From Acidobacteriota bacterium (lineage in GTDB: Bacteria; Acidobacteriota; Blastocatellia; Pyrinomonadales; Pyrinomonadaceae), in contig JAVXWN010000054.1 of assembly GCA_032230645.1 (NCBI GenBank), forward strand, positions 1,511 to 65,510: a DNA stretch of 64,000 nt, read 5' to 3'. The stretch's first letter is position 1; each line of letters opens with the position of its first letter. Position numbers and translations under genes: made by a program. Shown piece by piece: positions 7,456 to 29,559 of the stretch. Below the pieces are notes generated by a model. The model searched no databases. It had not been told where the DNA came from and worked only from the letters and a program-made list of their open reading frames with translations.

Positions 7456-8565
7456 ATGGAGTTCACGATCAGCAAAACCTCTCTTCAGAAAGAGCTAGGT
7501 CTTGTTCAAGGTACGGTAGAAAAGAAGAACACAATTCCCGCGCTCTCTAACATCCTTATCGAGTCCGTGGGCGAAGGCACGATCCGCGTCACTGGAACCG
7601 ACTTGGATGTGACGCTGCGTTGCGAGACGGAGGCTGAGATTAAGACGCCGGGTTCGATGTGTGTCGGTGCGCGCAAGCTCTTCGACATTGCACGCGTGCT
7701 GCCCGACGCACCTGTCAGTTTTCGGAAGGAGGAGAACAACTGGGCGACGGTCAAGTGCGAGCGCTCGAACTTCCGCATCGCAGGCATTGATCGGGACAAC
7801 TTTCCCGAAGTCCCGAGCTTTAAGTCCGCCCCGGTGAAACTCTCCGCAGGGGTCTTTAAAACACTCATTGACCGGACTATCTTCGCCATCACTTTGGAGG
7901 AGTCGCGGTACACGCTGTCCGGCGCCAAGTTCATGGTCAGCAAGTCGGGCGCGAGAATGGTGACGACCGACGGCCATCGCCTCGCTTACGTCGAGCGGAA
8001 GGACTTGGGGGCAGTGCCTTCGGAAGATATTGACGTACTCATCCCGCGTAAGACTCTTGCTGAACTCACGAAGTTAACTGCGTCTTTCGAGGGCGAGATC
8101 GGTCTTGGTGCCGACGAGAATCACATCTACTTCGAGGTCGGGCCGCGACTCCTCATCTCACGAACGCTGACGGGTCAATTCCCGAACTACGACATGGTGA
8201 TGCCGAAGACGAACGACAAGCGAGCCGAGTTCGACTCTCAATCGCTCGGGCAAGCCATAAGGCGCGTAGCCCTCATGGCCGACGACCGCTCGCACGCCAT
8301 ACGCTTCAAACTAACTCCCGGCAGCCTGCACATCAGCTCACAGACCGCCGAAGAGGGCGAGGCGCGCGAAACCGTCACCACGGAGTATGCGGGGGAAGAG
8401 ACAGAGATTGGTTTCAACGCCGCCTATTTACAGGACTTCCTGAACGTTCTGAGCGACAGCACAGTGGCCTTCGAGTTCAAAGACGGCAACTCGCAGGCGC
8501 AGCTCCGCCCCGGCTCCGACGACGGTTACGATTACAGGTACGTTGTCATGCCCATGCGTTTATGA
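7456..8565 (+). CDS. dnaN: DNA polymerase III beta sliding clamp
   Basis: 369 aa. N-terminal MEFTISKTSLQKEL... and C-terminal ...YRYVVMPMRL are typical of DnaN, and it is syntenic with dnaA. Confidence 0.95.
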   Translation: MEFTISKTSLQKELGLVQGTVEKKNTIPALSNILIESVGEGTIRVTGTDLDVTLRCETEAEIKTPGSMCVGARKLFDIARVLPDAPVSFRKEENNWATVKCERSNFRIAGIDRDNFPEVPSFKSAPVKLSAGVFKTLIDRTIFAITLEESRYTLSGAKFMVSKSGARMVTTDGHRLAYVERKDLGAVPSEDIDVLIPRKTLAELTKLTASFEGEIGLGADENHIYFEVGPRLLISRTLTGQFPNYDMVMPKTNDKRAEFDSQSLGQAIRRVALMADDRSHAIRFKLTPGSLHISSQTAEEGEARETVTTEYAGEETEIGFNAAYLQDFLNVLSDSTVAFEFKDGNSQAQLRPGSDDGYDYRYVVMPMRL

Positions 8566-8586
8566 CTTCGTAAGTCAAAAGACGAG

Positions 8587-8591
8587 CGAGG
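8587..8591. repeat. left copy of the 5-bp target-site duplication CGAGG
   Basis: CGAGG lies immediately outside TGAATTGG..., and the identical pentamer lies immediately outside ...CCGATTCA at 25854..25858. Confidence 0.6.
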
Positions 8592-8675
8592 TGAATTGGT
8601 ACAATAATTAGCCGAACTTTACAATAAAAAGGTGAACTTTACATTAAAAGGTTGAACTTTTTATTGGAAGAGTTC
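8592..8675 (+). repeat. R-like end: four contiguous transposase-binding-like repeats at about 20-bp spacing
   Basis: TGAATTGGTACAATAATTAGCC / GAACTTTACAATAAAAAGGT / GAACTTTACATTAAAAGGTT / GAACTTTTTATTGG. A possible fifth site (CAATAATGAACTCTG) lies at about 8754..8768. Confidence 0.6.
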
Positions 8676-8808
8676 GAGAGTGGACCTACGTGCAGACGAT
8701 CGCCGTGAAGAAGGACAAATCTAGCGGCAGTATTAGAAGCAGAATAGGCTGATCAATAATGAACTCTGCACGGCCGTAATAGTCTGCGGCCAGTAAGCGA
8801 GCCCCGGA

Positions 8809-10158
8809 TCAGTTGGACGGCGACGCGCCAGCCCCGGAGTCGCTAGCGTCATCCGACTTGTTATCTCGTGTGCTGAAGGACAGAATGACGCCGCCGAGCA
8901 GGGTGGACTGAGTTTTGCTGAAGTCGCCGGGAGTGGTTCTTTCAAACACGGGCTGATTCGACCAGTCTCTCCTATACTCAAGGCGCGTTAGCACGTACTT
9001 ATTGAACTTGTACTCGCCAGTAAAAGTCACCTCTTTGAGCCTCTGCGCTGTGCCGGACGTGTAACCGTCCGGGTCGTCGTACACCTCGAAGCGCGGGCTG
9101 AGAGCGAACTCCTTCGTGATCGCGAGGCGCAGGTAGGCCGCGACCCCTTGCCAGCGCACACTACTGCCGTCCGTTAGGGTGTCGTGACCGTAATCGTAGT
9201 TCCCCATCACCTTTACGCGCTCATTAAATTCGTAGCTCACGACCGTGTCGAGTAAGTGACGAAGGTGGTGGCTGTCGTCGGGCTGCTCAGGGCCGACCGT
9301 GTAGCTCTGCGTCAGCGACAGGTGGTCGGCGGGTTCCAAGTCGAGGGCGAGGCCGAATGTCTTACCGCCGTTGTTATCTCTAGTGTTGCCCCAGCCGTTG
9401 ACAAGGGCACCCGTGAGGGCGACTTTGTCGCTAAATTTATACTTCGTGCGCACCCCCGCGTGGAAGGTGGGCTGAGCCAGCACGTATAGGAGGCTGCGCG
9501 AGTAGTTCCAGTCCTTCTTCGCCTCATCGTATTCGGCACCGGCCCACGGAATGAACTTCCCGACGTCCACTTGCAGCCCCTCGCCGACTGGCACGAGATA
9601 GCCGACGTATGCCTGGTGCAGGTGCTCGGTCGCTTTGTGTGGGCGGGTCTCTTCCGAATTCAGGAAGTCCACGGCTTGGCGGCCGAAAAGGAGGTCGAGC
9701 TGAAACCCGAGGCGCGAGTCGGCCGTGGACTCCTTTTCAAAGGAGACCTCCGCCATGTCGAGTGCGAGCCGCCTGTCGCGTGTGTCGAAGCTGCGGAAGA
9801 GATTTTCTTCGCCCGCCGGGTGGTTGTAGTTGTGACTGTAATAAGTGCTGACGAAAGCGTCCACGGTAGTTTTGCCGAAAAAACGTAGAAACTTGTTGCG
9901 CTCGTCCTTCGCCTGCTTCTGATCGTCGTCGGCGCGGGGGCGCACTGTCGGCCCCGTGCTGCCTTGGACTTCGGCTGCCATTTCGGCGTGCGGCTGGTCG
10001 TCGTTACACACTACGATGGCGTCCGCCGTTTCCTTCGCGGTCGGCACGAGTTGTTGCGAGCGGGCGTCGCGGGCTGAGAGTGCCACCGAAAGGAGCGCGG
10101 TGAGTAGGCACATGCAGAGTAAGTTGATGCGGCGCGTGGAGGTCTTGACGAGAATCAT
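8809..10158 (-). CDS. outer-membrane beta-barrel porin (OmpL-like / BBP2-type)
   Basis: 449 aa with a signal peptide (LLCMCLLTALLSVALSA) and alternating aromatic beta-strand patterns (FVSTYYSHNYNHP, GFQLDLLFG, VLTRLEYRRDW). Confidence 0.65.
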   Translation of the reverse strand: MILVKTSTRRINLLCMCLLTALLSVALSARDARSQQLVPTAKETADAIVVCNDDQPHAEMAAEVQGSTGPTVRPRADDDQKQAKDERNKFLRFFGKTTVDAFVSTYYSHNYNHPAGEENLFRSFDTRDRRLALDMAEVSFEKESTADSRLGFQLDLLFGRQAVDFLNSEETRPHKATEHLHQAYVGYLVPVGEGLQVDVGKFIPWAGAEYDEAKKDWNYSRSLLYVLAQPTFHAGVRTKYKFSDKVALTGALVNGWGNTRDNNGGKTFGLALDLEPADHLSLTQSYTVGPEQPDDSHHLRHLLDTVVSYEFNERVKVMGNYDYGHDTLTDGSSVRWQGVAAYLRLAITKEFALSPRFEVYDDPDGYTSGTAQRLKEVTFTGEYKFNKYVLTRLEYRRDWSNQPVFERTTPGDFSKTQSTLLGGVILSFSTRDNKSDDASDSGAGASPSN

Positions 10159-10290
10159 GTGAAGCTACTTGGGCGTAGGCCGGAACGGGGGCGGTAACAG
10201 TTTCAGACTCTGTACCAGCCTATGCAGCAGTGGTTACGCTCGTGCGAGGAAGAGCCGATTCACGGAGGGCACCTGAAGAGATAGCTTGCC

Positions 10291-11541
10291 CTAGCTCTTT
10301 TTTAAGATCACAACGGCGACTAGGCCGCAAAACGAAGAAATCAGAATAAAGACTAAACAGTAAAACAGGACCTTGGCCACATCGGCACCGGTTCGTAAGT
10401 TCAACTCCGTCAGGCCGAGGAGGGCTGCGAGCGCCAGACAGAACATCTGGGCCGCCATGTTGGTCACGCCTGAGACCGCGCCGTGGGCGAGCCCCATGCT
10501 CAGGCGCATACGTTCGGGCGCGCGGTTGACGTGCACGAGGACGGCCAACCAGCCGTTCGTCAGCAGCAAGATGAGCCACAAGCCGAGGCTTACGTCCTCG
10601 AAGCCCAAGGCCCTGAGGCCGAGAAGTATCGCGACCGACGCAAAGCCGATAACGCCCCCTATCAGCGCGGACAGGACTAGGGCTGCGGCCGATGAGGAGG
10701 TTTCGTACATCGACAGCGGCCGCGTGGGCCTGTCGTTATCCAGACGCTTCTCGATCAGCTCTGACTCCTTGCCCATAAAGGAGTTGAGATCATCCCTCAT
10801 CTGGGCAGCGCTGGCATAGCGCTGCTTTATGTCCGGCGCGAGGACCTTCATTACTATGCGACGGAGCGCGTCAGGGCACGAGTCCGGCAGCGGGGGCGGC
10901 GGCACGCGTGACAGAATCAGCTTCTCAAGCTTGCGCGTCGTCACTTCCGTGAACGGCTGCCTGCCAGAGACCATCTCGTAGAGCAGGACCCCTACCGACC
11001 AGATGTCTGAATGCTGGTCGACGTATCCCGTATCGAGCCGCTCAGGTGAAGCGTAGCCCGTGCTCCCGAACTCGCTGCGGGTCAGGCGGCGAGTCTGCGA
11101 GAGTGCCTTGGCGATTCCAAAGTCAATCAGCCTAATTCGGTCTTGCAGGTCTACGCGCACATTCTGAGGCTTAATATCGCCGTGAATGATACCCTCGACC
11201 TCCTTGCCATCCACGAGGCCATAAAAGGAGTGTGAGACGCTGAGAACACAGCATATCTCGTACGCGATTCTCGCCGCTTGCGGGGCGTCGAACTGGCCCG
11301 CATTGATCATTGAAGACAGGTCTTTGCCCTCGACGTACTCCATCGCGACGTAGAAGTGGTCATCTAAGTCAGCGTAACCGTAGACAGCGGCCACGTGCTT
11401 GTCGAGTTCGTAGAGGCGGGACTGCAACTGCGCGCCCCGCCTCTCGGCCTCAATGGCCTCGACCGTTGCCCGGTCAGACCTGTGAGGGATTATTTTAAGC
11501 GCCACTTGCCTCCGCTTCTTATTGTCGAAAGCTAAGTACAC
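10291..11541 (-). CDS. Ser/Thr protein kinase (non-RD, HGDIKP) with a four-TM C-terminal region; no canonical start codon covers the glycine-rich loop
   Basis: Motifs VALKII, HGDIKPQNV, DFGIAKAL and ASPERL. Kinase homology continues upstream of the GTG at 11541 as HFKILHAIGRGGFGD. That open frame, back to the in-frame stop near 11704, contains no ATG, GTG or TTG. Confidence 0.7.
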   Translation of the reverse strand: MYLAFDNKKRRQVALKIIPHRSDRATVEAIEAERRGAQLQSRLYELDKHVAAVYGYADLDDHFYVAMEYVEGKDLSSMINAGQFDAPQAARIAYEICCVLSVSHSFYGLVDGKEVEGIIHGDIKPQNVRVDLQDRIRLIDFGIAKALSQTRRLTRSEFGSTGYASPERLDTGYVDQHSDIWSVGVLLYEMVSGRQPFTEVTTRKLEKLILSRVPPPPLPDSCPDALRRIVMKVLAPDIKQRYASAAQMRDDLNSFMGKESELIEKRLDNDRPTRPLSMYETSSSAAALVLSALIGGVIGFASVAILLGLRALGFEDVSLGLWLILLLTNGWLAVLVHVNRAPERMRLSMGLAHGAVSGVTNMAAQMFCLALAALLGLTELNLRTGADVAKVLFYCLVFILISSFCGLVAVVILKKS

Positions 11542-11595
11542 GTCACCAAACCCGCCGCGCCCGATGGCGTGCAGAATCTTGAAGTGGCCTAGGTT

Positions 11596-11627
11596 TTTAT
11601 AAATGTTTCCCTTTATAAATGTTTCCC
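11596..11627. repeat. perfect 16-bp tandem duplication TTTATAAATGTTTCCC x2
   Basis: An AT-rich island in GC-rich DNA. It lies between the amine-oxidase stop (11648) and the kinase glycine-loop codons. Confidence 0.9.
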
Positions 11628-11647
11628 ACGGTCGAGGAGTCTGAAGG

Positions 11648-13228
11648 CTAGCGCCGCACGCCGTAGGCCGCGCGTCTTGCGCGTGAGGGGCGACGATGCC
11701 CCCTCACTTTCAGCCTCACAGCCTCTGCCGCCATCCTGCCGCTTTCGGCGCCGCCGTTCATGTACCCCTGAAAGTCGCGGCTACAGTGCTCGCCGGCGAA
11801 GAACAGATTGCCGACGGACTCGATCTCGGCCCCGCCGATCCCCGTCCACTGCCCCACCTTGTAGCAGGAGTAGCTGCCAAGGCTAAATGGGTTCGAGGGC
11901 CAGTTGAATACGCCTTTGCTGCCGTTGTGCTTCGCGGTCGCGTCGCCGTACGCTTGGTCGAGCACAGAGAGGTAGCGGCCAGCCATGCTCTCGGACAGGT
12001 TGAGCCCGTCGGCACCACCGAGAAACACGGTGTAGCCGCCGCTCCCCGCGTTCCCGTTTTGAAGTTGGCTGTGGTCCCAGCCGTTCTGTAGGATATTGTT
12101 AATCAGGTAGCCGCTGTAACCCTTGCTGCGCCACACCCTCTCCTTGAAGCCGAGCAGCAGCTTCGCGTTAGTGCCATAGCCCAACTCCCTGATGGCAGTC
12201 ACCTTCTGCGGCGGGAGGGGCAGCTGCAAGTCCACGTGCCTCAGGACGGAGAAAGGGATAGCGAGGATGACGATGTCCGCTTTGACCTCTTTGCCGCCGT
12301 AGAACGAGAGGACGTACTCGCCGCCACTACCCTTCATAGCTTGCAACTGCCTGCCCCTTTCGATCCTGTCCTGAAGGCGCTCGCCGAGTCTCTTGATGAG
12401 CAGGTCGTTGCCGCCTTTTATCTTGAACCGCTCATCGCTCTCGCCGAAGACCTTGAACTCCTTGGCACCGGGCTCCGCGCCTATCATTGTGAGAAAGTTC
12501 AGCGCCGACTGTTCTCCCACGTCCAGCCCAAACTCGCTGGTGTAAGCCGCCCTGAGCAACTCCAGGAGCCAGCCGCGTACCCCGAGCTGTTGGAAGTACT
12601 CTTCGACCGAGATGATGTCGTACTTACGGGCCGCGCCGGGGTGCCGGTAGGTGACGTTTTTGGGCAGCACGTCCTGATCCTGCTTAATACTCTTCGCGAT
12701 GCCTTTGAACTCGCTGACCACTTGCTGCTCGGTGTAGCGGGTGCCGTTTATGAAGTAGTCATCCTGCTTGAGGCGGCGCTCGCTTAACTCCATCCGGTCA
12801 TAACGCGGCAGATGAAATTCCCTGGCCAATTGGATGAGGTCGGCGTGGCTGCTGTCTATGAACTCGCCGCCCAGCTCAGAATACACGTCAGGTGCCACGA
12901 GGCCGCGGGCCGTGCGGATACGCCCGCCCAGAGTGTCGCTGGCCTCGTAGACCGTCGCCCTGAGCCCGACCTTCGACAGTTGGTAGGCGGCGTTGAGTCC
13001 CGCTATCCCGCCGCCCACGATGGCGATGCGCGGTGCCGAAGCGACCGCCTGGGCCAGAGCGCCCGCCCTAGTCAAGAGCGCGACTCCGCCGAGCCCTAGG
13101 CTGGCCTTCGCGGTCGTCGAAAGGAAGGCGCGGCGGTCGAAAGCCTCAGGGGCTTCTTGCGGAGTCCCGGCTTCCGTCGCCTCGCTCTCGTCACAACCCC
13201 GACCGGAACTGTCTCCGAACGCATCCAC
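11648..13228 (-). CDS. Tat-signal flavin-containing amine oxidase family protein
   Basis: Twin-arginine signal DRRAFLSTTAKASLGLGGVALL...ALA followed by the FAD dinucleotide fold RIAIVGGGIAGLNAAYQL and a C-terminal FAGEH motif. I trimmed the start to the GTG at 13226..13228, because the 667-aa track ORF runs antisense through the PP2C gene. Confidence 0.75.
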   Translation of the reverse strand: MDAFGDSSGRGCDESEATEAGTPQEAPEAFDRRAFLSTTAKASLGLGGVALLTRAGALAQAVASAPRIAIVGGGIAGLNAAYQLSKVGLRATVYEASDTLGGRIRTARGLVAPDVYSELGGEFIDSSHADLIQLAREFHLPRYDRMELSERRLKQDDYFINGTRYTEQQVVSEFKGIAKSIKQDQDVLPKNVTYRHPGAARKYDIISVEEYFQQLGVRGWLLELLRAAYTSEFGLDVGEQSALNFLTMIGAEPGAKEFKVFGESDERFKIKGGNDLLIKRLGERLQDRIERGRQLQAMKGSGGEYVLSFYGGKEVKADIVILAIPFSVLRHVDLQLPLPPQKVTAIRELGYGTNAKLLLGFKERVWRSKGYSGYLINNILQNGWDHSQLQNGNAGSGGYTVFLGGADGLNLSESMAGRYLSVLDQAYGDATAKHNGSKGVFNWPSNPFSLGSYSCYKVGQWTGIGGAEIESVGNLFFAGEHCSRDFQGYMNGGAESGRMAAEAVRLKVRGHRRPSRARRAAYGVRR

Positions 13229-14857
13229 GAGGCAATTACCATTGCCAACAACGAAATCCTCCGCGCGGCTGAGGGACGCGAGGAGTGGTGCGGCATGGCA
13301 TGCGTGCTGACGGTGGCGGTCGTCGAGGACGGCAAGGCCACCATAGGCCATGTCGGCGATACGCGCCTCTACAAGATACGGCGGGGGCAGATAGAGAAGG
13401 TCACGCACGACCACTCGCCCGTAGGCGAGCGCGAGGACTCGGGCGAGTTGTCGGAAGTGGACGCGATGCGCCACCCCAGGCGTAACGAGGTCTACAGAGA
13501 CGTAGGCACGCAGTTCCACGAGCCAGACGACCCGGACTTCATAGATCTTATAGAAATACCGTTCGAGCCGGACAGCGCGCTCCTCATGTGTAGCGACGGC
13601 CTGAGCGACCTCGCGACCTCGGCGCAGATTCTGCGCATTGTCGAGGCGCACGCGGGCGACTCTACCGAAGTCGTGGAGCGGCTGATCGAGGCAGCCAATG
13701 AAGCCGGCGGCAAGGACAACATCACGGCCCTGTTTGCCTCGGGCGCAGAGTTTGCGGCTGCGGCGCGCCTGGACGGGGAGCCGCCGGTCATACCTACCGC
13801 GCCGCTCGAACTTCCTGAGAAGGCTGCCGACGGGTCGGACGCGGACGCCGTGGCGAAGGCGGATGCTGGCGAAGGCCCGAATCCGAACGAATCACGGAAC
13901 CCGAATGAGTCAAGCGGCCCAGTCGAGCGGCCGCGTCCCGGCGGCTTCGGCCGTCGTGCGCTGAGGTGGCTCGGGTCGCGCCCGCTGGTCTTCATTTGCG
14001 GGGTATTGTTCTGTGTCCTTCTGCTGCTACTCATGCCGCGTGAGTGGCGCAGTCTGTGGCTCCGGCCCGAAGTTATCGCGCCCCCGCCTTCGCCACAGGC
14101 GCGCACCCTACGCGTCGCAGCCGAAGGCAAAGAGTTCACGACAATCGCCGACGCGCTAGAGCATGCGCGCCCCGGCGACACGGTCGAAGTCGCGCCCGGC
14201 GAGTACCACGAAAGCGTGGTCATGAGGGAGGGCGTCGCCATCGTCAGCGCACAGCCCCTCGGCGCGCTGATTCGCCTGCCCGAGGGGTCGGACGAGCCGC
14301 GCGTCGCCGTCAAAGCCGAGGGGGTCAGAGAGGGGCGGCTTGTCGGCTTCAGGATCGAGGGTGACGAGACCTCCCCGCTCGACGTAGGGGTGCTTTTGGC
14401 GGACTCGAACGTCGAGGTGGAGCGGATGGAGATTTCCGGGGCTCAGGCGGCTGGCGTGAAGGTGACGGGCCACTCGCAGGCCGTCTTGATCGGCAACCAT
14501 ATACGCCAGAACGCCGGTAGCGGCGTGAGCGTGGAGGGCGAGTCCGAGCCGGAGATTCTTCACAACTGGATCATCGGCAACGGCGCCCCCGTGAAGGGCG
14601 TGCGCGATGTCGGCAGCCCCGGCGTTGAAATCCACGACTCCGCGCAGCCGGTACTGATAGGAAACGTGATCGCCGAGAACGGCGCGGCCGGCGTTGACGG
14701 GCTACGCGCGGAGAGGCAGAAGGACGTGGAGAAGAAGAACTATTTCGGCGAGGACGTGAAGGCGAACCGCAAGGGCAAGGTGCACGCGCGGGCCGAGACG
14801 CAGGCCGGGCCCGGCGCGCAGGCGACCGCCGCGGACGGACAGAACATTCGACGTTGA
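13157..14857 (+). CDS. PP2C-family phosphatase (N-terminal metal-binding motifs missing), then a TM segment and a right-handed parallel beta-helix domain
   Basis: PP2C motifs GMACVLTV, VGDTRLY, THDHS, HPRRNEVYRDVG, LMCSDGL and GGKDNITALF are present. No DGMGGH-type motif occurs in any plus-strand frame upstream. A TM segment (LVFICGVLFCVLLLLL) is followed by beta-helix repeats (GNHIRQN, HNWIIGN, GNVIAEN). Confidence 0.7.
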   Translation: MRSPGFRRLALVTTPTGTVSERIHEAITIANNEILRAAEGREEWCGMACVLTVAVVEDGKATIGHVGDTRLYKIRRGQIEKVTHDHSPVGEREDSGELSEVDAMRHPRRNEVYRDVGTQFHEPDDPDFIDLIEIPFEPDSALLMCSDGLSDLATSAQILRIVEAHAGDSTEVVERLIEAANEAGGKDNITALFASGAEFAAAARLDGEPPVIPTAPLELPEKAADGSDADAVAKADAGEGPNPNESRNPNESSGPVERPRPGGFGRRALRWLGSRPLVFICGVLFCVLLLLLMPREWRSLWLRPEVIAPPPSPQARTLRVAAEGKEFTTIADALEHARPGDTVEVAPGEYHESVVMREGVAIVSAQPLGALIRLPEGSDEPRVAVKAEGVREGRLVGFRIEGDETSPLDVGVLLADSNVEVERMEISGAQAAGVKVTGHSQAVLIGNHIRQNAGSGVSVEGESEPEILHNWIIGNGAPVKGVRDVGSPGVEIHDSAQPVLIGNVIAENGAAGVDGLRAERQKDVEKKNYFGEDVKANRKGKVHARAETQAGPGAQATAADGQNIRR

Positions 14858-14879
14858 GGTCCCACCTTCGAGAAAGATT

Positions 14880-16855: not shown

Positions 16856-19800
16856 TTCGTATCCACAGGACAGTCGCCGACAAGGGTGCAAGCCGGCTCC
16901 CGAAGCGCGCACGAGAAAGCTCACGCTGGCGAGAGCTTTTCGGCCTACTCTTATCCTCGTTCGTGATAGCCACGGGGCTGTTCCTCGTCTATCAGGCGAA
17001 GACGAAGCGCCCCACGCCTTTCGACGAGGCCAGCGCCATGCTCAAGGACGGAAGGCTCCTAAACCTCAACCAAGCGCCGAGCCGCGAGTCGCTCCTGCCG
17101 TTTTTGTCCGCGATAGAGAACCCCGCCGACAGGCAGTTCGCCGCTGAGAAGCTCTACGCCTTCCTCAAGGACCCGCGCACCGGCGAACTGCCGAACGTCG
17201 GCGCGCTGACGCGCGCGCGCGCTGACGCCGCCGAGATAACTTCGAGGCCGGGACTGAAAGATTACCGCGAAGAACTGGAGCGGCTGCGTCAGCGCGACGC
17301 GGAGAGGGTGAAGGCCGGGCGCTCCCCCGCCGCCGAGAGCAAAGTTTCCGTGATCGCGCAGGTGAGCGAGCTGAAGCCTTCCTTCGTCGTTCGCACGCCC
17401 GAAGAGTTCCGCCGCTCCTTCCTCGTTTGGTCGGCCCTCTGCTTTCTGGGCGCCTTCGCCGTTCACTTCGCTTGGCGCGCGCGCAAGTTTGAGGGCGACC
17501 AGACGCTTCTGCCGATGGTTCAACTCCTGAGCGGCATCGGGCTGATTCTGATGGTGAGCCTACGCGACCCGCTCCGTGACTCGCTGAGCCTTGAGAACTT
17601 CGGCCAGGGGATTCTGGCCGGCTACGCGGTGCTATTCGCGGCCAGCGCGACAGACGTCAGCAAGCGGTTCGGCCGGTCAAGGTACGTTCCGCTGCTGATC
17701 GGCCTGGCGCTATCCGTCGCCCTCATCCTCTTCGGTAGCGGCCCCGGTTCGAGCGACGCAAAGGTTAACCTACTAGGCTTTCAGCCCGTCGAAGCCATCA
17801 AAATACTCGTCGTCCTTTTCCTCGCCGGCTACTTCGCGAAGGAGTGGGAGGTCATACGGCTTTTGAAGGAGAAGCGACTTGGAGGGGCCGGCGCACGGCT
17901 AAACGTCCCGCGGCTCGACTACGTGCTGCCGGTGGTCGTAGCAATGGGGCTGGTGCTCCTCTTCTTCTTCCTTCAGAAAGACCTCGGCCCGGCGCTGATA
18001 CTGTCATGCCTATTCTTAACCCTCTACGGCGTGGCCCGCCAGCGCGTCATGATGGTTGCTTTCGGCCTGTTGATGATGCTCGCGGGATTCTACGTCAGCT
18101 CACACTTCGCCATCTCGCACACGGTCGCCGACCGCATACAAATCTGGCTCTCGCCCTGGGACAACAACGTTAGGGGCGGCGACCAGCTCGTGCAGGGGCT
18201 CTGGTCACTGGCGACCGGCGGCGTATCGGGGATGGGACTCGGCCTGGGCGACCCTGGCCTCGTGCCAGCAAGTCATACGGACTTCGTCATCACCGCGCTC
18301 GGCGAGGAGGTGGGCTTCGCCGGGCTGCTGGTTCTGTTCCTGCTCTACGCCGCCTTGATCTATAAAGGAGTCGTCATTGCGCTTCGCTCGGCCGACCCTT
18401 ACGCCTTTTTCCTCGCCCTCGGCCTGACGCTGCTGACGGCCCTACAGATTCTACTGATATCGCTCGGCGTCTTCGGACTCATCCCGCTCTCTGGCGTCGT
18501 GTCGCCGTTCATCAGCTACGGCCGAACGTCCATGATCGCCAACTTCGCCATCGTCGGCATACTGCTCTCGCTCTCGGCGCGGCCCGGCGAGGGCGAGCAG
18601 CGCGACTTCAAGACGCCCGTGCGCTGGGTGATGGCGTGCCTCGGCGTGCTGACGGTCGTGCTCGTGGCTAGGGCGGCCTATGTGCAGAGCTACCGCGGCG
18701 ACGAGATTCTGGTAGCCTCGGCGCTGGCACCGCAGGCCGACGGCGTGCGGCGCTATCAGTACAACCCGCGCATCCTACAGGTCGCCCGCACGCTGCCGCG
18801 CGGCAGCATCTACGACCGCAACGGCATCCCGCTCGCCACCAGCCGCCGCGAGGAGTTGGAGCAGCACAGGCAGGATTATGAGAGGCTCCTCGGCGTCAAA
18901 CTCGAAGATGTATGCGGACGCGGCGAAGGCCGCTGTTACCCGTTCGGAGCGAGCATGTTCCATCTGCTCGGCGACGAGCGGACGCGCCTCAACTGGGCCG
19001 CCACAAACACCGCCTACATCGAGCGCGACTCAAGCACCCGACTACAGGGCTACGACGATTACGCGCAGAGGGTCGAACTGAAAGACCCGGAGACGGGCCG
19101 CACGAACGTCGTGCTGCGCAGGGACTACAGGGAGTTGATACCGCTTCTACGTTACCGCTACCGCCCCGACGACGAGTCGGTCAAGCGCATACTCGAACGG
19201 GAGCGCGACGTGCGAACGTCCGTGGACATACGCCTTCAGTTGCGCGCCGCGCAAATCCTGCGCGATCAACTCCGCGCCACGGACAGGGACAAGGGCGCGA
19301 TGGTCGTGCTCGATGCGGACACGGGCGACCTCCTCGCGAGCGTGAGCTACCCAACGCTCGACGCACGGCCTCCGGCCCTGGCGACTCCCGACGGCGCGGC
19401 CGAGGAGTTGGAGTCGGCTTTGCTCGACCGCGCGCGGTTCGGACTCTACCCGCCCGGCTCCACCTTCAAGATCGTGACTGCTGTCGCGGCCCTGCGTAAA
19501 GACCCCGGCCTCGCGAAGAAGACCTTCGACTGCGTAGGCTTGGGCGACGGGCGCGTCGGCAACACCGTCCGCGGGTGGAATCGCCCTATCCGCGACGACA
19601 AGGGCGACTCCGCTCACGGACACGTCAACATGGAGAGGGGCATCACTGTTTCCTGCAACGCCTACTTCGCGCAGTTGGGCACGTATGAAGTCGGGCCGGA
19701 GGCGCTCTTCTCCACGGCCTCGCTCTTCGGCGTCTCCGTCGCCAGCCCTAACACGGCGGCGAAACTGCGCGAGGCCATCCCGCAGTCGTCCTATGGACAG

Positions 19801-20226
19801 GGGCAGGTGGTGGCTTCACCCTTCCAGATGGCGAGAGTCGCAGCGACCGTTGCCGCGGGTGGGCGCATGCCTTACGGGCGATGGGTGACGGACGATAGCA
19901 ACCAGCGCGTGCAACCGCCGCAAGAGGTAATCGACGCAGCCGCCGCGTCGTTCCTGGCGCAGGCTATGCGCTCCGTAATCACCCAGGGCACCGCGACTCG
20001 GCTGCGCGACACTAAGTCACAGGTCGCGGGCAAAACCGGCACGGCCGAGTTGGAAGGCCAGGACTCGCACTCGTGGTTCATCGGCTTCGCCCCCTATGAC
20101 AAGAACTCGTCCAGCCGCATAGCTTTTAGCGTCATCATAGAGAACGGAGGCTACGGCGGGCGCGCGGCCGTGCCCGCGGCGGGCGCGCTCGTCAACGCCG
20201 CCCGCGAATTGGAGATCATTCATTAA
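16852..20226 (+). CDS. SEDS (FtsW/RodA) glycosyltransferase fused to a class B penicillin-binding transpeptidase
   Basis: 1124 aa. SEDS motifs ASHTDFVITALGEEVGFAG and PLSGVVSPFISYGRTSM, then a TM segment, then transpeptidase motifs STFK, SCN and KTGT. The TTG start overlaps the kinase stop as TTGA. Confidence 0.88.
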   Translation: MIRIHRTVADKGASRLPKRARESSRWRELFGLLLSSFVIATGLFLVYQAKTKRPTPFDEASAMLKDGRLLNLNQAPSRESLLPFLSAIENPADRQFAAEKLYAFLKDPRTGELPNVGALTRARADAAEITSRPGLKDYREELERLRQRDAERVKAGRSPAAESKVSVIAQVSELKPSFVVRTPEEFRRSFLVWSALCFLGAFAVHFAWRARKFEGDQTLLPMVQLLSGIGLILMVSLRDPLRDSLSLENFGQGILAGYAVLFAASATDVSKRFGRSRYVPLLIGLALSVALILFGSGPGSSDAKVNLLGFQPVEAIKILVVLFLAGYFAKEWEVIRLLKEKRLGGAGARLNVPRLDYVLPVVVAMGLVLLFFFLQKDLGPALILSCLFLTLYGVARQRVMMVAFGLLMMLAGFYVSSHFAISHTVADRIQIWLSPWDNNVRGGDQLVQGLWSLATGGVSGMGLGLGDPGLVPASHTDFVITALGEEVGFAGLLVLFLLYAALIYKGVVIALRSADPYAFFLALGLTLLTALQILLISLGVFGLIPLSGVVSPFISYGRTSMIANFAIVGILLSLSARPGEGEQRDFKTPVRWVMACLGVLTVVLVARAAYVQSYRGDEILVASALAPQADGVRRYQYNPRILQVARTLPRGSIYDRNGIPLATSRREELEQHRQDYERLLGVKLEDVCGRGEGRCYPFGASMFHLLGDERTRLNWAATNTAYIERDSSTRLQGYDDYAQRVELKDPETGRTNVVLRRDYRELIPLLRYRYRPDDESVKRILERERDVRTSVDIRLQLRAAQILRDQLRATDRDKGAMVVLDADTGDLLASVSYPTLDARPPALATPDGAAEELESALLDRARFGLYPPGSTFKIVTAVAALRKDPGLAKKTFDCVGLGDGRVGNTVRGWNRPIRDDKGDSAHGHVNMERGITVSCNAYFAQLGTYEVGPEALFSTASLFGVSVASPNTAAKLREAIPQSSYGQGQVVASPFQMARVAATVAAGGRMPYGRWVTDDSNQRVQPPQEVIDAAAASFLAQAMRSVITQGTATRLRDTKSQVAGKTGTAELEGQDSHSWFIGFAPYDKNSSSRIAFSVIIENGGYGGRAAVPAAGALVNAARELEIIH

Positions 20227-20241
20227 GGGAAGGGTACACGC

Positions 20242-21042
20242 GTGAGTATTTTCGAGAAGTTGGAGAAGGCCATCGAGAAGGTGATCGGGGGCGGGCGCGA
20301 CCGGCATCGCGAGCCGCTAGAGATCAGTCGGGCGATCATCAACGAGCTTGAGAGTAAGATTACCCCCCTCGATGGCGGCAGGCGCGTCTTCCCGTACACG
20401 CGCGTCACCGTGCGCCTGTACGCAGGCGACGCGGAGCGCCGCGCGATCTATGAGGTAGCCTTCATCAACGAGCGTCTGCTTGAGAGGAGTATACGCGAGC
20501 ACCTGCGCGCGCCTAAGTGCGAGACACCGGTCGGGCTCTTGATAAACGTCCTAATCGAGGAGACAAGCCCGCCCGACCTTATAGCACAGGGATACGCCTT
20601 AGAGTATGGGAGCAGCGCCCCGCAGCAGGATCCCGCGCCGGTCATCACGAGCCCCCTCCTCATGGTGGTGCAGGGCATCGCCCAGACCTCCGAGTACCGC
20701 ATCGCCAAGAGGCGGACGAACATCGGCAGGCAGGCCGAAGTGCACGACACCGAAGGCCGGCCGTTCCGGCGCAACGACCTCGCGTTCCTGAACGACAACA
20801 ACGAGGTCAACCAGACCGTCTCCAAAGTCCAAGCGCACATTGAGTACAACCCGCAGACGGGGGAGTACAGGCTCTACGACGATGAAAGCGCCTTCGGCAC
20901 GCTGATCATCCGAGAGGACGGCCGGCGGGTCGACGTTACCAAACATCTCGGCTCGGCCCTGCGTCCCGGCGACGAAATCTACTTCGGTCAGGCGCGCGTG
21001 CTCTTCAAAAATGAGAAGGACGAGAAGGGTAAGGACGGATGA
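20242..21042 (+). CDS. FhaA-like protein (FhaA N-terminal-type domain plus a C-terminal FHA domain)
   Basis: The N-terminus MSIFEKLEKAIEKVIGG...EISRAIINELE resembles the FhaA N-domain. The C-terminal FHA signature is TNIGRQ...ND...VSKVQAHI...DDESAFGT. Confidence 0.75.
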   Translation: MSIFEKLEKAIEKVIGGGRDRHREPLEISRAIINELESKITPLDGGRRVFPYTRVTVRLYAGDAERRAIYEVAFINERLLERSIREHLRAPKCETPVGLLINVLIEETSPPDLIAQGYALEYGSSAPQQDPAPVITSPLLMVVQGIAQTSEYRIAKRRTNIGRQAEVHDTEGRPFRRNDLAFLNDNNEVNQTVSKVQAHIEYNPQTGEYRLYDDESAFGTLIIREDGRRVDVTKHLGSALRPGDEIYFGQARVLFKNEKDEKGKDG

Positions 21043-21314
21043 AACATAGGCCGGTGCCTCCCACGTCCTCGCCCTCCGCCCGATCTTCACGGCAGATCGA
21101 AAGTCGCCGCAGGCGAAACGGCGCAGCCTGCGCTCATCCCTCGCAATAATTGTAAGTTACTTAGCTCTTCTCATAACCACGGAAGGGCGCGGACTAACCA
21201 ACGTTTCTTACGAAAGCCGTTCCGGTTTCTTCATTCTCTTGTCGGCATATTTGAGTACATACCGAGCAATCTGGAGAATGCCAATACACCATTCCACAGC
21301 GACTCTATTCTTAC

Positions 21315-21659
21315 TCACCGCTTCTTAGCACGCCTTGCAGTCTTAACCTTAGATGTATGCCTCACCACTCCGTGCATCGGATCAGGGGCAAGCTTATCCG
21401 GCAAGTCCTGCTCGTCATCGATGAGCAATTCGACATTCACGCCTGCCACCCTTGCGTAGCGAAGCAAGTGCGGCAGCGCAGGCTCCCTAGACCACTTGTC
21501 ATCGGGTTCGCGCTCGAAGGCGCTGACGTCCGACTGCTTTAACTCATCCAGCAGACCTAGTCGACTCACCATCTCCGCCTGAGACAAACCATAAGCCTCG
21601 CGTATCTGCCGGAGCTTCTCGTGCAGGCGCAGAGCGCGCGGCCTCTTACGACTTCCCAT
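21315..21659 (-). CDS. XRE-family helix-turn-helix transcriptional regulator
   Basis: LRQIREAYGLSQAEMVSRLG is an HTH_3-like segment. The ATG at 21657..21659 is preceded by a GGAGG ribosome-binding site about 9 nt upstream (rc of the cctcc at 21669..21673). Confidence 0.7.
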   Translation of the reverse strand: MGSRKRPRALRLHEKLRQIREAYGLSQAEMVSRLGLLDELKQSDVSAFEREPDDKWSREPALPHLLRYARVAGVNVELLIDDEQDLPDKLAPDPMHGVVRHTSKVKTARRAKKR

Positions 21660-21711
21660 CAGAAGTAACCTCCTCCGATGGGAAGATTGCGCGAAGAGCA
21701 TCCAAGCTTAG

Positions 21712-21748
21712 CACTCTAATTGTCTTGCGCAATACTTCAATTAGAGTT
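21712..21748. promoter_or_regulatory. inverted repeat CACTCTAATTG ... CAATTAGAGTT, a candidate operator in the XRE / bPH divergent region
   Basis: CTCTAATTG at 21714..21722 and its reverse complement at 21738..21746. The 11-mer AACTCTAATTG recurs at 23021..23031. Confidence 0.5.
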
Positions 21749-21920
21749 ATAGTGTCGCCTCGAACCGATCCCGCCGTGGTCCCTGTCTTTAGTTCCGCGA
21801 CGGCTCTCATTACCGGTTGAGTTGTCGAGCCACTTCACGCATTGCTCTAGCGATACGAATTGTCAAAGACGTGATCTGGAATAACGAGCCGGTAAGAATA
21901 GCAGAATTTACGCCGATGGT

Positions 21921-22421
21921 GTGAAACGTATGGCATTGGACGCTGCCATGCACTCTCATTCGGATGCGGTCCTCGTGGATCGCCCCGTCACGCGCCGGAC
22001 CGCATCCATTATGCTGGCCCTCGCCGCCGTCACCGTGGTCTGTGCGGCAATATTCGCCGTGTGCCTGCTACAAACTAATCCCGGTGACTCCTCCTGGACA
22101 TGGGTTTTCGGGATCGCAACGTGCGCACTTCTCATCATTACAACCGGCATGGCGCTGGATTTCGCTAGGCTTTACTCCGAGAAATATGTAGTGACACCAG
22201 AAGCCATCGAAATCACAAGCGGTATCCTGCGGCGCGACTCGCGCAAGATCCCTTTAGCCAATGTTCTGGATGTGACTTCCAACAACTCATTCGACCGGCG
22301 GTTGTTCGGCGTTGGGAACATTACGATCGCAATCGCCAACGGCGACCGCATCACGCTTGAGGACGTCACTGACCCCCACGGTAAGATGGAAATCCTCTGG
22401 CAGTTGGTTCACAAGAAGTGA
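21921..22421 (+). CDS. membrane protein with a bacterial PH domain (bPH_2 / YdbS-YdbT-like)
   Basis: Two TM helices followed by YVVTPEAIEITSGILRRDSRKIPLANVLDVTSNNSFDRRLFGVGNITI. Confidence 0.6.
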   Translation: MKRMALDAAMHSHSDAVLVDRPVTRRTASIMLALAAVTVVCAAIFAVCLLQTNPGDSSWTWVFGIATCALLIITTGMALDFARLYSEKYVVTPEAIEITSGILRRDSRKIPLANVLDVTSNNSFDRRLFGVGNITIAIANGDRITLEDVTDPHGKMEILWQLVHKK

Positions 22422-22445
22422 ACCAAGGAGTAGAAAAGGAGACGC

Positions 22446-22745
22446 ATGTTCAGGAAACGATGGCGGCTTACTGCATCACTTATGGTCATCGCGGCGCTTG
22501 CTGGCGGAGTGGCTTCGAGCGGCCTCCCCTTTCTAGCTCAGGAAGCTCAAGCTCAGCGAAATACGGCGACTCCCAAAACGTCGGTGCACAAGTGGGAATA
22601 TCAGGTCTATATCGCGCCAGGGCCGCAAGATCTGTCCGACAAAGCCAACCAACTCGGCGACGAGGGGTGGGAGCTAACAAACGTTATCACGGACGAGCGC
22701 ATCGTCAGTCGCTACATCGGGTACTTCAAACGTCCGAAGCAATAG
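22446..22745 (+). CDS. small secreted DUF4177-like protein
   Basis: Signal peptide followed by WEYQVY...LGDEGWELTNVI. Confidence 0.5.
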   Translation: MFRKRWRLTASLMVIAALAGGVASSGLPFLAQEAQAQRNTATPKTSVHKWEYQVYIAPGPQDLSDKANQLGDEGWELTNVITDERIVSRYIGYFKRPKQ

Positions 22746-23020
22746 CGATAAGGAGAGAAATAGGCGCTCATACGCCATTGTCTTTCTCGCTATCGAGCAA
22801 GTTAGGCACGGGCTCCCTCTTGGGGCGAATGGAGCCATCTGTGCCGGGACCGCCGCACCCATAGAGGGGGTGACCGCGAGTGCGGCGGTCTCTCAACTAT
22901 CAGACTTTCAGTCCTCCCTTTTCCGCGGCCCCTACCACCCTCTGGCGACACCGTCTCTTTGAAACTGAGAACGGTGTTTCTAACACGCAAAATCCACCAT
23001 AAAAATTTCGCTACCCAATC

Positions 23021-23031
23021 AACTCTAATTG
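23021..23031 (+). promoter_or_regulatory. third copy of the AACTCTAATTG motif, upstream of the ORF144-tnsD operon
   Basis: An exact 11-mer match to the reverse complement of 21738..21748. Confidence 0.45.
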
Positions 23032-23163
23032 GAGTATTATGCGCGCCTCAAGGTGGTTGCATACGCGCAACAGCGTACAACACACAAGACAAGCGGTGAT
23101 TATCACCGTGGTCAGCGTTGAATCTCCACTGTAGCCCAACCGCCTGCCCTCCCGAGCGACTCC

Positions 23164-23598
23164 ATGCCGGAAGCAGCTACTGAGAACGATTCCCTACCGG
23201 ATGTGCAGCCCGTAAGCGTCGATGACTTCATCGAGCGGGCGCGAAAAGCTCAGGAAAAGCGAGATAAAAACACCCAACAAAATAAGCGAAATGATGATGA
23301 GGACGACGCCCCGAAGGCGACGCAAGAAGCCTTACCCCGCAATCCAAACACGGGAAACGGACAAGCTTCCGCCGACACACCAACTCAAGGCACTCCGGAC
23401 GAAGCCTCATCTCTCGATCCGCCGAAGCAGATACGGATGAGAAGGCCCAAGAAGAGCAAGGAAGTGTACCCGGAAGGTGACCTACGGGGCGGGATGGCGA
23501 AGGGCGTCGACTCAGGGACTACTCCATACGAATCCCTCCGGCAAGCTGGTCACATTGCTCCCGAAACTGAGTTCGTCCCTGCGGAGGAAACATCATGA
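23164..23598 (+). CDS. hypothetical charged low-complexity protein, translationally coupled to the tnsD-like gene
   Basis: 144 aa. The stop overlaps the next ATG as ATGA (23595..23598), and a GGAGGAAA ribosome-binding site for the downstream gene sits inside its 3' end. I recognise no family. Confidence 0.4.
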   Translation: MPEAATENDSLPDVQPVSVDDFIERARKAQEKRDKNTQQNKRNDDEDDAPKATQEALPRNPNTGNGQASADTPTQGTPDEASSLDPPKQIRMRRPKKSKEVYPEGDLRGGMAKGVDSGTTPYESLRQAGHIAPETEFVPAEETS

Positions 23599-25568
23599 GC
23601 GGCTTCTTCCCCGAGCTTTACCCAGATGAAACGCTCCATAGCGCCTGCTCGCGCTACCATGCCCGGGCAGGATATCGAACTCGGGAGGCGACCGGGCGTG
23701 ACCTACTTCGTGCCGAAAGGCTAAAAGTCGCGATTGACTTGCCTTCGAACCTCAATGCCTTAGTCGCCTCACTTCCGCCGGGGCACCGATACACCGTCGA
23801 TTATTTCATCGGCAGGCACACGCTGCTGCCCTTCTACGCCCCGTTCCTGCCACCTGAGCGTGTCACAACCCTACGCGCCGACATGCGCGGTTCTGGCAGC
23901 GGTTCGATCCACGGTCGCATCGGGATTCTCACTAGCGGGATCGGCCCTGAGCAGTTGCGCTTTTGCCCGGAGTGCGTCCGAGCAGATCGGGAAAAATACG
24001 ACGATGGGACGTACTGGCACCGTCTACATCAAACACCGGGAGTCGAAGTCTGCCACCTGCATGGCATCTTCTTACAGGACAGCGGCGTTCATTACAGGCA
24101 CCGGAGCCATCATGACTCCTTCGTCGCGGCGGAACAGGCTGTCAGCCTTAAAGGCATGCGCTTCGTTGATGCTCAGAATAAAAATCATCAGGTGTTGTTA
24201 AAGATCGCCACCGACGCTGCATGGCTCCTTGGCCAAGAAAGGTTGTTAGCCGAGTCAGAGAATGCCAATCGCGAGAGGTATATCGAACTGCTTTTTCACA
24301 AGGGGCTCTCGACCTACCCCGGCACGGTGAGCACAAGACTACTTATAGAAAGCTTGAAAGCATTCTACTCGCCCGCGTTACTCGGACAGATAGCGTGTCC
24401 GATCGAGGCGAAATATAACTGGGCACATCGGCTCGTACACAACACGCGCGGGGCGCAACACCCCCTCCAGCACCTATTGCTTATGCAGTTCCTGAACGTC
24501 ACCGCGGAAGATTTCTTCTGCCTCCCCGGCAAGCGGCAACCGTTCGGCGAAGGGCCGTGGCCCTGCCTCAACCCAGTAAGCGACCATTTCGGTAAAGAGT
24601 TGATAGCCGAGTACGAGGTGTCATCGATCACGCAACGAAATGGGCGTCGCCCGCGAGCAACCTTTTGCTGTGACCATTGCGAGTACACCTATTATCGGGT
24701 AGGCCCCGACCTTGCAGATGAAGACCGCCGGAATTCGCACGGCGTTATTACCTTCGGACATGTTTGGGATGAGAAACTGAAGCGGGCCTTCGCTGAAAGT
24801 GCAGATCATAAGCAGTTACTTGATCGCTTCGGTGTCAAACAGCACACGCTCGACAAACAACTTATTCGCCTCGGACTGGTAGCAATAAGAGAGACGGGAG
24901 GCTGTGCAAAAGTGGATGGGCGACATCGAAGAGCGCTCTCGCCAGAGCAGGAACATGAACTCAGAGAAGGTCACAGAAAAGCTTGGCGGGAGGTTTTGAG
25001 AGCGAACCCCGAACTGGGGCGGAGCGCTCTTAGAGGAAAGGCACCCGACCATTACATCTGGCTATACCAGCATGATCTTGAGTGGTTAAAGGTACACCTG
25101 CCAGAGCGGCAAAACCCGAGCGGACCTAAAGAGCGGATAGACTGGCCCACGCGGGATGCGGAAATGGCACTATCAGTGAAGCAAGAGGCAGAAAAACTAC
25201 GGCACATGCCAGGCCGCCCGGTCAGGATTTCGGAGACAAGGCTCGCCAAAGGGACTGGCAAACTGACCATCATCAGTAAACACGGAGATAAGTTACCGCT
25301 TACACTCAAAGCCCTTGAAGAGGTATCCGAGACGGTCGAGCAGTACGCCGTAAGGCGAGTAAAGTGGGCAGCAGCGTGTTTCCGCGCAGAAGGCATTCGT
25401 CCATCACGAGGAAAACTTCAAATTCGCGCAACCGTCAGCCATCAAATAGTCATTCGTCCAAAAGTTGAGCAGGCAATGGACAAAGCTTTGAGCGCACTCG
25501 ACCCGAGAGACCTCCAAAAGCCGGAGGCCTCCCACGAGCGCAGCATAACAACAGATAAAAGCCGATAA
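23595..25568 (+). CDS. tnsD: TnsD/TniQ-family transposition target-selection protein
   Basis: Colinear with Tn7 TnsD landmarks as I recall them: FPELYPDETLHS, LPSNL, HTLLPFYAPF, FCPECV...YWHRLHQTPGVEVCHLHG (a CCCH zinc-finger pattern). There is a second cluster, PWPCLNPV...FCCDHCEY. Confidence 0.85.
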   Translation: MSGFFPELYPDETLHSACSRYHARAGYRTREATGRDLLRAERLKVAIDLPSNLNALVASLPPGHRYTVDYFIGRHTLLPFYAPFLPPERVTTLRADMRGSGSGSIHGRIGILTSGIGPEQLRFCPECVRADREKYDDGTYWHRLHQTPGVEVCHLHGIFLQDSGVHYRHRSHHDSFVAAEQAVSLKGMRFVDAQNKNHQVLLKIATDAAWLLGQERLLAESENANRERYIELLFHKGLSTYPGTVSTRLLIESLKAFYSPALLGQIACPIEAKYNWAHRLVHNTRGAQHPLQHLLLMQFLNVTAEDFFCLPGKRQPFGEGPWPCLNPVSDHFGKELIAEYEVSSITQRNGRRPRATFCCDHCEYTYYRVGPDLADEDRRNSHGVITFGHVWDEKLKRAFAESADHKQLLDRFGVKQHTLDKQLIRLGLVAIRETGGCAKVDGRHRRALSPEQEHELREGHRKAWREVLRANPELGRSALRGKAPDHYIWLYQHDLEWLKVHLPERQNPSGPKERIDWPTRDAEMALSVKQEAEKLRHMPGRPVRISETRLAKGTGKLTIISKHGDKLPLTLKALEEVSETVEQYAVRRVKWAAACFRAEGIRPSRGKLQIRATVSHQIVIRPKVEQAMDKALSALDPRDLQKPEASHERSITTDKSR

Positions 25569-25699
25569 GTAGATAACATTATTACCAGTGAAGAACGGTC
25601 GCCACGCTTTTAATTTCTTTGACCTATGACAACTATTTGTGTAAAGTGCCGCATAAAGAAGCAAATTGATTAAAGGCGGAGACAAATTAGTCTTCTAAG

Positions 25700-25853
25700 A
25701 GGAGAAGTTCACGTATTTAATGTCGCGGGAAAAATGAGCGCGGCTGCTGGACCGTGAAAAGTTCACCTAAGTAGTCATCAAGGGTCGAGACACCAGAAAA
25801 GAAAATAAAGGACTTATCGACGCAAAAGTTCAGGTTATTATTGTACCGATTCA
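25700..25853 (-). repeat. L-like end: terminal inverted repeat plus dispersed GTGAACTT-type repeats
   Basis: Reverse-complement reads: TGAATCGGTACAATAATAACCT (25832..25853), GAACTTTTGCG (adjacent), GGTGAACTTTTCAC (about 25755..25768) and CGTGAACTTCTCC (about 25701..25713). Confidence 0.6.
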
Positions 25854-25858
25854 CGAGG
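25854..25858. repeat. right copy of the 5-bp target-site duplication CGAGG
   Basis: See 8587..8591. Confidence 0.6.
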
Positions 25859-25871
25859 CCAGCGCTGGTTA

Positions 25872-25897
25872 CGAGCAGCATATGTTAAACTCGACGT

Positions 25898-25907: not shown

Positions 25908-29559
<3,652 letters not shown>

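Follow-up and report, generated by a model that had tools for sequence, protein, structure and literature searches.

What has come between dnaN and recF in the chromosome of an Acidobacteriota bacterium of the family Pyrinomonadaceae, and why does the inserted DNA encode a transposition target selector and no transposase? The locus lies in a stretch of 64,000 nucleotides (nt) of contig JAVXWN010000054.1 (assembly GCA_032230645.1), hereafter called the window, and the insertion is a Tn7-family transposon of 17,262 bp at positions 8592-25853. Our analysis makes it very probable that this is a transposon of the prototypic TnsA/TnsB/TnsC/TnsD type, sitting at a dedicated site 26 nt past dnaN and rendered defective by an internal deletion of about 7.6 kb.

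Element ends and target-site duplication

The tip facing dnaN reads TGAATTGGTACAATAAT from position 8592, and its reverse complement closes the recF-side end, where the terminal inverted repeat (...ATTATTGTACCGATTCA) has its last base at 25853; the recF-side tip is the reverse complement of TGAATCGGTACAATAAT. The two tips agree at 25 of the 29 outermost nucleotides and have TG...CA termini, the same count as in an earlier note on this DNA, made from the sequence alone, which had placed inverted ends at 8592 and 25853. The pentamer CGAGG, also reported there at both flanks, is present as a target-site duplication in positions 8587-8591 (left copy) and 25854-25858 (right copy). A 17-mer end motif, allowing up to three mismatches, occurs in the 64 kb at two sites only, both being element ends (0.06 sites expected), and the end repeats and the duplication are well above chance expectation. 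The dnaN stop codon ends at 8565, which places the tip of the element 26 nt past it, at the upper limit of the 22-26 bp estimated previously.

The right-type (R) end, facing dnaN (8592-8682, + strand), comprises the terminal inverted repeat and contiguous TnsB-type sites, and the left-type (L) end, facing recF (25704-25853, - strand), comprises the terminal inverted repeat and dispersed TnsB-type sites. The repeat unit is best taken as a 21-mer, TACAATAAAAAGGTGAACTTT, in the register set by comparison with a complete related element (L015/L090, see below). Three contiguous sites are found in the R end (8600-8620, 8620-8640 and 8640-8660, starting 9, 29 and 49 nt from the tip) and three dispersed sites in the L end (25825-25845, 25758-25778 and 25704-25724, starting 9, 76 and 130 nt from the tip), all six pointing inward. 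The dispersed arrangement on the recF side was thus read correctly in the earlier note, while its four contiguous repeats on the dnaN side are reduced to three. The difference between the contiguous sites facing dnaN and the dispersed sites facing recF is the R/L end asymmetry of the Tn7 type. In the whole window the 21-mer with up to six mismatches has six matches, five of them being inward-facing end sites and the sixth being the segment 8648-8668.

This sixth match is an additional inverted TnsB-type copy (8648-8668, - strand, four mismatches), which overlaps the innermost R-end sites. A previous 20-mer repeat consensus, ACTTTACAATAAAAAGGTGA, was in the wrong register, matching two sites only, and was discarded.

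Loss of tnsABC by internal deletion

The only transposition gene that is intact in the element is tnsD (23595-25568, + strand), encoding a target selector of 657 aa. Its assignment to the TnsD/TniQ type, proposed in the note from the translation, is borne out by profile search (Pfam TnsD, 1.3e-78; TniQ, 8.3e-23), and the N-terminus of the protein matches the structure of Tn7 TnsD (8glu, E = 5.8e-16). The gene has no internal stops and differs from tnsD of a near-identical intact element, hereafter the twin (loci L004/L005 and L175), by 40 nt and 21 aa, with pN/pS of 0.37.

No sequence of TnsA (endonuclease) or TnsB (DDE transposase) was detected in the whole window by Pfam and tblastn searches. 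The earlier note had seen no TnsC-like ORF between the ends either, and this part of its claim does not hold, as residues 462-595 of 595 (134 aa) of TnsC are encoded in positions 23194-23595 (+ strand; tblastn with TnsC of a relative, 100% identity, E = 5e-83). The remnant sits in a 144-aa open reading frame (ORF; 23164-23598) that overlaps the start of tnsD and lacks the AAA+ domain; this ORF has no Pfam match and was identified by tblastn with the TnsC of a relative.

Alignment with the twin locus L004 places the deletion junction at 23192/23193. Window positions 21359-23205 align with L004 positions 139-1985 at 96.7% identity, and the alignment resumes at window position 23193, corresponding to L004 position 9599, so that the deleted segment of about 7.6 kb spans L004 positions ~1973-9598. 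The junction shows imperfect microhomology only. The genes lost are tnsA, tnsB and codons 1-461 of tnsC, including the AAA+ part, as well as five accessory ones (an exonuclease-like gene, a sigma-70-like gene, a 233-aa ORF, an M78-like peptidase and a 106-aa ORF). Since three other assemblies (L001-L003) have exactly this junction sequence, and a fourth contig, compared by gene layout only, has the gene arrangement of the deleted form, this form is not an assembly error.

Hence, tnsABC was lost through an ordinary internal deletion of about 7.6 kb. Of the options left by the earlier note, which had considered the element to be a fossil, to be mobilized in trans or to have its core replaced, the fossil is the right one in light of the mapping against the intact twin. 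The window copy presumably cannot move autonomously, and at most could be mobilized by TnsABC from a related element. For annotation, the lesson is that an orphan tnsD can be a mere mark of a deleted element.

Intact relatives and exchange of cargo

The twin (contig Ga0467048_0000015, positions 137337-160332) is 22,996 bp long and carries tnsA-tnsB-tnsC-tnsD, its tnsD being 97% identical to that of the window. The same gene order upstream of recF-gyrB is observed in L004/L005 (TnsD 97%), L006 (77%), L007 (50%) and L090 (44%). The twin TnsB matches the E. coli Tn7 TnsB (7pik) over nearly the full length with E = 2e-95, a far better match than to any TnsB of CRISPR-associated transposons; the twin TnsA has both TnsA Pfam domains, and its TnsC has the expected ones. 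Neither TnsE nor a second selector is seen in the intact relatives; in the window and the twin, the element end follows directly after tnsD, and no other protein of these loci has a Pfam match to TnsE or TniQ.

At the dnaN end the window copy and the twin are identical in 87 of the first 91 bp, and then the similarity stops. It is restored at 21359 and extends to the recF-side tip, while the DNA between the dnaN-side end and 21359 is entirely different. From the TnsC remnant to position ~25742 the two copies are 95-100% identical, whereas in recF the identity is 63-81%, the transition bin spanning the terminus at 25853; DnaN proteins of the two hosts are 88% identical. Therefore, a near-identical element resides in two diverged hosts, and cargo is exchanged between otherwise near-identical elements. 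The twin cargo of 10.8 kb consists of DruA, a 491-aa ORF and a 1554-aa protein with an FtsK/SpoIIIE domain (L171, 1-8970; L175, 11756-21113), being probably a Druantia-type defence island in the place of the kinase and cell-wall cluster of the window.

The layout is common to the clade: the right end is followed by cargo and then by tnsA, and tnsD abuts the left end. L015/L090 follow it, their cargo being an MmeI-like restriction-modification gene. In L006, the recF-side end is separated from recF by about 7 kb (9707-16850) encoding a patatin, a 789-aa ORF, a DUF4331 protein and a TPR protein. This could be an older decayed island displaced by a newer insertion, or host DNA; no second element end was recognised near recF in L006.

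The 3' end of dnaN as probable attachment site

The DnaN scan of metagenome contigs yielded 80 related loci. Among them are the empty sites that the earlier note had expected in relatives: in L010-L014 (90-95% DnaN identity) recF follows dnaN after 54-68 nt. Removal of positions 8592-25858 from the window leaves a dnaN-recF spacer of 65 nt, which equals the spacer of L014 in length and aligns with it base for base.

Five further elements occupy the same spot in the same orientation, in agreement with the suggestion, made in the note for the window alone, that the 3' end of dnaN is the attachment site of this TnsD homolog. In all six elements, including the one of the window, the end with contiguous sites is turned toward dnaN, and the tips lie 26-28 nt past the dnaN stop. 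The window element, 17,262 bp with tnsABC deleted, has its tip 26 nt from the stop, the duplication CGAGG/CGAGG and a distance of 13 nt from the repeat to the hairpin at the start of recF (described below). The corresponding values are 26 nt, GAAAC/AAACT (with AAAC shared) and 6 nt for the intact twin (L175/L004, 22,996 bp), 28 nt, CCTCT/CCTCT and 4 nt for the complete element L015/L090 (~16 kb, TnsD 44% identical), and 28 nt, TCTGT/TCTGT and 20 nt for L030, a gene-less miniature of ~400 bp. L021 and L055, represented by the dnaN-side end alone and with no flanking repeat seen, both lie 27 nt from the dnaN stop. As the tips keep their distance from the dnaN stop to within one base in either direction, and the distance to the recF hairpin varies from 4 to 20 nt, the insertion position is measured from dnaN. 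Moreover, in several relatives the recF-side end is 1-7 kb away from recF.

In the miniature (L030, 1773-2225) the sites are contiguous at the right end and dispersed at the left one, and the TCTGT duplication is perfect.

Within the last 300 nt of dnaN, conservation over 76 loci is highest in the final 30 nt, at 0.86 overall. At third codon positions it is 0.69 in these 30 nt, compared to 0.49-0.59 elsewhere in the last 300 nt, and just past the stop, where insertion occurs, it is 0.35-0.39. In the beta clamp, the C-terminal residues contribute to the pocket that binds its partners, and this would explain the constraint on the 3' end of dnaN. We predict that the TnsD recognition sequence is formed by the last ~11 codons of dnaN (...YRYVVMPMRL*; 8533-8565, + strand). 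The pattern is that of Tn7 and glmS, where the binding site of TnsD is within the conserved end of the coding sequence and the element inserts past it, into DNA that is not conserved (PMC2918618).

The mechanism we propose for the intact elements is as follows. TnsD would bind the final ~30 bp of dnaN, a highly conserved piece of coding sequence, and, by analogy with Tn7, recruit the AAA+ adaptor TnsC, which would activate TnsA and TnsB on both ends. Insertion would then proceed at a fixed distance, with the contiguous-site end toward dnaN, the tns genes running along dnaN and a 5-bp duplication; the geometry, the orientation and the duplication are observed. In the window copy, an illegitimate-recombination deletion of about 7.6 kb has taken tnsA, tnsB, the first 461 codons of tnsC and the five accessory genes, and the ends, the duplication and tnsD remain intact after it. 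Speculatively, the orphan tnsD may still bind the site and affect re-invasion or expression of local genes.

In named genomes, TnsD relatives adjoining recF come only from Pyrinomonadaceae and other Acidobacteriota (L091, L092, L097 and L105; 50-38% identity), and the metagenome element L090 (TnsD 44%) has the same recF adjacency. For cyanobacterial, Chloroflexota and Firmicute TnsD relatives (at most 41%), neither dnaN nor recF was found within 10 kb. We lean towards the generalization that a Pyrinomonadaceae clade of prototypic-Tn7-like elements homes to the 3' end of dnaN, with TnsD reading the codons of the conserved beta-clamp C-terminus. If true, cargo that can be exchanged (for example, defence systems and kinase/cell-wall modules) is brought beside the replication origin, splitting the conserved dnaA-dnaN-recF-gyrB cluster; high gene dosage of the cargo would follow from the origin-proximal site, and recF is cut off from its usual upstream genes.

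The site would be an apparently undescribed safe harbour for the Tn7 family, shared by a group of its elements in soil Acidobacteria and following the glmS logic in which a near-invariant coding end is read and the insertion is made just beyond it. The intact twin provides a compact natural TnsABCD system, close to prototypic Tn7 and with another specificity, which may serve as a model for the retargeting of TnsD C-terminal regions and possibly as an orthogonal tool for site-specific integration. For genome annotation, the transposon explains why the best conserved gene cluster of the chromosome is interrupted by an island of 17 kb.

The earlier note did not recognise the 3' end of dnaN as a described Tn7-family attachment site, and no description of it was found in the open-access literature searched. 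Neither dnaN nor recF appears as an attachment site in the text and supplements of Faure et al. 2023 or in the text and one supplement of Benler et al. 2021, and nothing on them as a Tn7-family site is given in Hsieh & Peters 2022 or Peters 2017. For the dnaN-recF junction, phrase searches of this literature gave nothing on mobile elements; of the two papers there that mention both TnsD and dnaN, one cites the clamp as a host factor of TnsE, and the other is an unrelated review of yeast transposons.

Comparison with known systems

The elements at dnaN share with Tn7 of E. coli the heteromeric TnsA/TnsB transposase and the AAA+ TnsC (both in the twin), TnsD with the TniQ N-terminal domain, TG...CA ends and a 5-bp duplication. 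As in Tn7, it is the end with contiguous TnsB sites that is turned toward the target gene, with which the tns genes are co-directional. The target, an essential gene of high conservation, stays intact, the insertion falling about 25 bp beyond its stop codon. They differ from Tn7 in the target, which is dnaN instead of glmS (attTn7), in the hosts, which are Pyrinomonadaceae (Acidobacteriota), and in that the intact relatives have no visible tnsE or second selector. In the Tn7 map the tns genes abut the right end, whereas here the right end is separated from tnsA by cargo, and tnsD is at the left end. The window copy additionally lacks tnsA, tnsB and most of tnsC. It has the ends, the 5-bp duplication, the TniQ/TnsD selector and the oriented site-specific insertion of the Tn7 family, and is without functional genes for TnsA, TnsB and TnsC; of the features of canonical Tn7, the position downstream of glmS (the neighbours being dnaN and recF) and TnsE are absent.

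Internally deleted, non-autonomous Tn7-family derivatives are generally known to keep the ends and the duplication and to lose transposition genes, as the window copy does, with the L030 miniature as an extreme case. Unlike them, the window copy still has the whole tnsD gene and a cargo of 12.7 kb.

Other protein-recognised sites used by Tn7-like elements are tRNA genes, parE and, in the case of Tn6022, comM (PMC9881144, PMC10293859, PMC8649781). In such retargeted elements, as here, a selector of the TnsD/TniQ family or associated with it recognises another conserved sequence, the insertion is oriented, and defence systems are found among the cargo (PMC9881144, PMC10293859, PMC8649781). Unlike comM in the comM elements, dnaN is not disrupted.

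Alternative explanations

Alternatively, tnsABC could have been lost first and the shortened element then inserted by TnsABC of a related element acting in trans, which would make it a mobile non-autonomous derivative and not the product of decay in place. This would agree with both ends, the duplication and tnsD being intact, and with the gene-less miniature L030, which has a perfect duplication at the same site in another host and indicates that such derivatives recur or move. However, mobilization in trans, one of the options of the earlier note, found no support among the copies of the deleted form: all of them have 100% identical flanks and represent one population, and none was found elsewhere or with another duplication. 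In addition, the window has no second element or end motif, and the genome has a single dnaN site, which is occupied here. We therefore regard this course of events as improbable. Still less likely, and rejected here, is that the end of dnaN plays no part and the attachment determinant is the recF hairpin together with the 5' sequence of recF. In favour of it are the high conservation of the 15-bp stem covering the start codon of recF and its location 4-20 nt away from the point of insertion. However, its distance varies (13, 6, 4 and 20 nt), in contrast to the 26-28 nt by which all tips are separated from the dnaN stop; several relatives have kilobases (1-7 kb) between the recF-side end and recF; and the Tn7 selector binds on the right-end side, which here faces dnaN. 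As for replacement of the transposition core, with movement by another recombinase encoded in the cargo, the cargo is indeed odd for an element of the Tn7 type, and tns genes are missing; however, the 13 largest ORFs of the element have no Pfam match to DDE, tyrosine or serine recombinases, and the TnsC stub together with the mapped junction amounts to simple loss. We reject this option of the note, assigning it a negligible probability.

The preferred reading, a TnsABCD-type transposon dedicated to dnaN and decayed by deletion, has several points against it as well. The present data fit a deletion either before or after the insertion. The flanking repeat of the twin is ambiguous by one base (GAAAC or AAACT). 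Binding of dnaN by TnsD is suggested by the constant spacing, the sequence conservation and the analogy with Tn7. Two acidobacterial TnsD relatives, L093 (48%) and L096 (43%), have no dnaN or recF within 10 kb, and here the target may be not uniform in the clade, or the cargo may be longer than the fetched sequence. Finally, the dnaN attachment site is apparently new to the Tn7 family, a provisional statement that covers the open-access literature searched.

Cargo genes

The variable cargo of the window copy (8683-21358) comprises 12.7 kb with GC content of 60-66% and is wholly different from the cargo of the twin. On the - strand it encodes an OmpL-like beta-barrel porin (BBP2; 8809-10158, Pfam 1.4e-73), a Ser/Thr protein kinase (10291-11541, Pkinase 1.4e-38) and a flavin amine oxidase (11648-13651, Amino_oxidase 6.6e-51). 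These are followed on the + strand by a PP2C phosphatase with a beta-helix domain (13157-14857; gene callers use a later start, giving 520 aa), a Ser/Thr kinase with TPR repeats (14880-16855), a fusion of FtsW/RodA (SEDS) with a class-B penicillin-binding transpeptidase (16852-20226; FTSW_RODA_SPOVE 3.1e-49, Transpeptidase 2.6e-38) and an FHA-domain protein (20242-21042, Pfam). The kinase with TPR repeats is split by a frameshift into two ORFs, 14880-15413 and 15410-16855, which correspond to positions 1-148 and 157-258 of the Pkinase profile; as the break is inside the kinase domain and is also present in the three other assemblies covering it, the gene is likely a pseudogene or has a real frameshift.

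Two further genes belong to the module common to the window copy and the twin. These are a helix-turn-helix (HTH) protein gene (21315-21701, - strand), inside which similarity to the twin starts at 21359, and the gene of a bPH_2 membrane protein (21930-22421, + strand) that is 100% identical to the one of the twin.

The segment 13157-21042 (PP2C, kinase, FtsW/RodA-transpeptidase and FHA) resembles the actinobacterial fhaAB-pstP-rodA-pbpA-pknAB cluster of cell-wall signalling. Such a kinase/cell-wall signalling cluster is an unusual load for a Tn7-like element. Moreover, the SEDS glycosyltransferase and the class-B penicillin-binding transpeptidase, normally separate partner proteins, are here in a single ORF of 1124 aa.

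This cargo is not classed as a defence system, as the PADLOC hits were to kinase models (PD-T4-6 and mad6), taken as generic matches to the kinase domain, the further matches being only a weak HTH and a weak desaturase. No Cas families are present among the Pfam matches of the element ORFs, CRISPR repeats not having been searched for specifically.

Flanking genes and the recF hairpin

The element is flanked by dnaA (5565-7061) and the target gene dnaN, encoding the DNA polymerase III beta clamp (7456-8565, + strand), on one side, and by recF, downstream of the attachment site (25898-27046, + strand), and gyrB (27061-29559) on the other. Each of the four genes was identified by Pfam with its full set of domains, including all three DNA_pol3_beta domains in dnaN.

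A 15-bp hairpin, CGAGCAGCATATGTT ... GACGTATGCTGCTCG, in window positions 25872-25908 buries the start codon and first codons of recF. It is also present in L004, L006, L010-L016, L022-L028 and L090, and the consensus fold over 16 loci has an energy of -23.3 kcal/mol, with compensatory GC/AU and UA/CG changes at two pairs. Possibly the hairpin regulates the translation of recF, or serves as a terminator or attenuator. Insertions of the Tn7-like elements fall just upstream of it and leave it intact.

In L017 (3696-3769) and L020 (3835-3909), ARAGORN predicts a tRNA-Ser(GCT) gene of 74-75 nt between dnaN and recF, and thus the junction is not invariant across the family. The GC content of the dnaA-dnaN-recF-gyrB core (window positions 1-8000 and 25000-30000) is 45-54%, compared to 58-66% in the cargo and the rest of the window (30000-64000).

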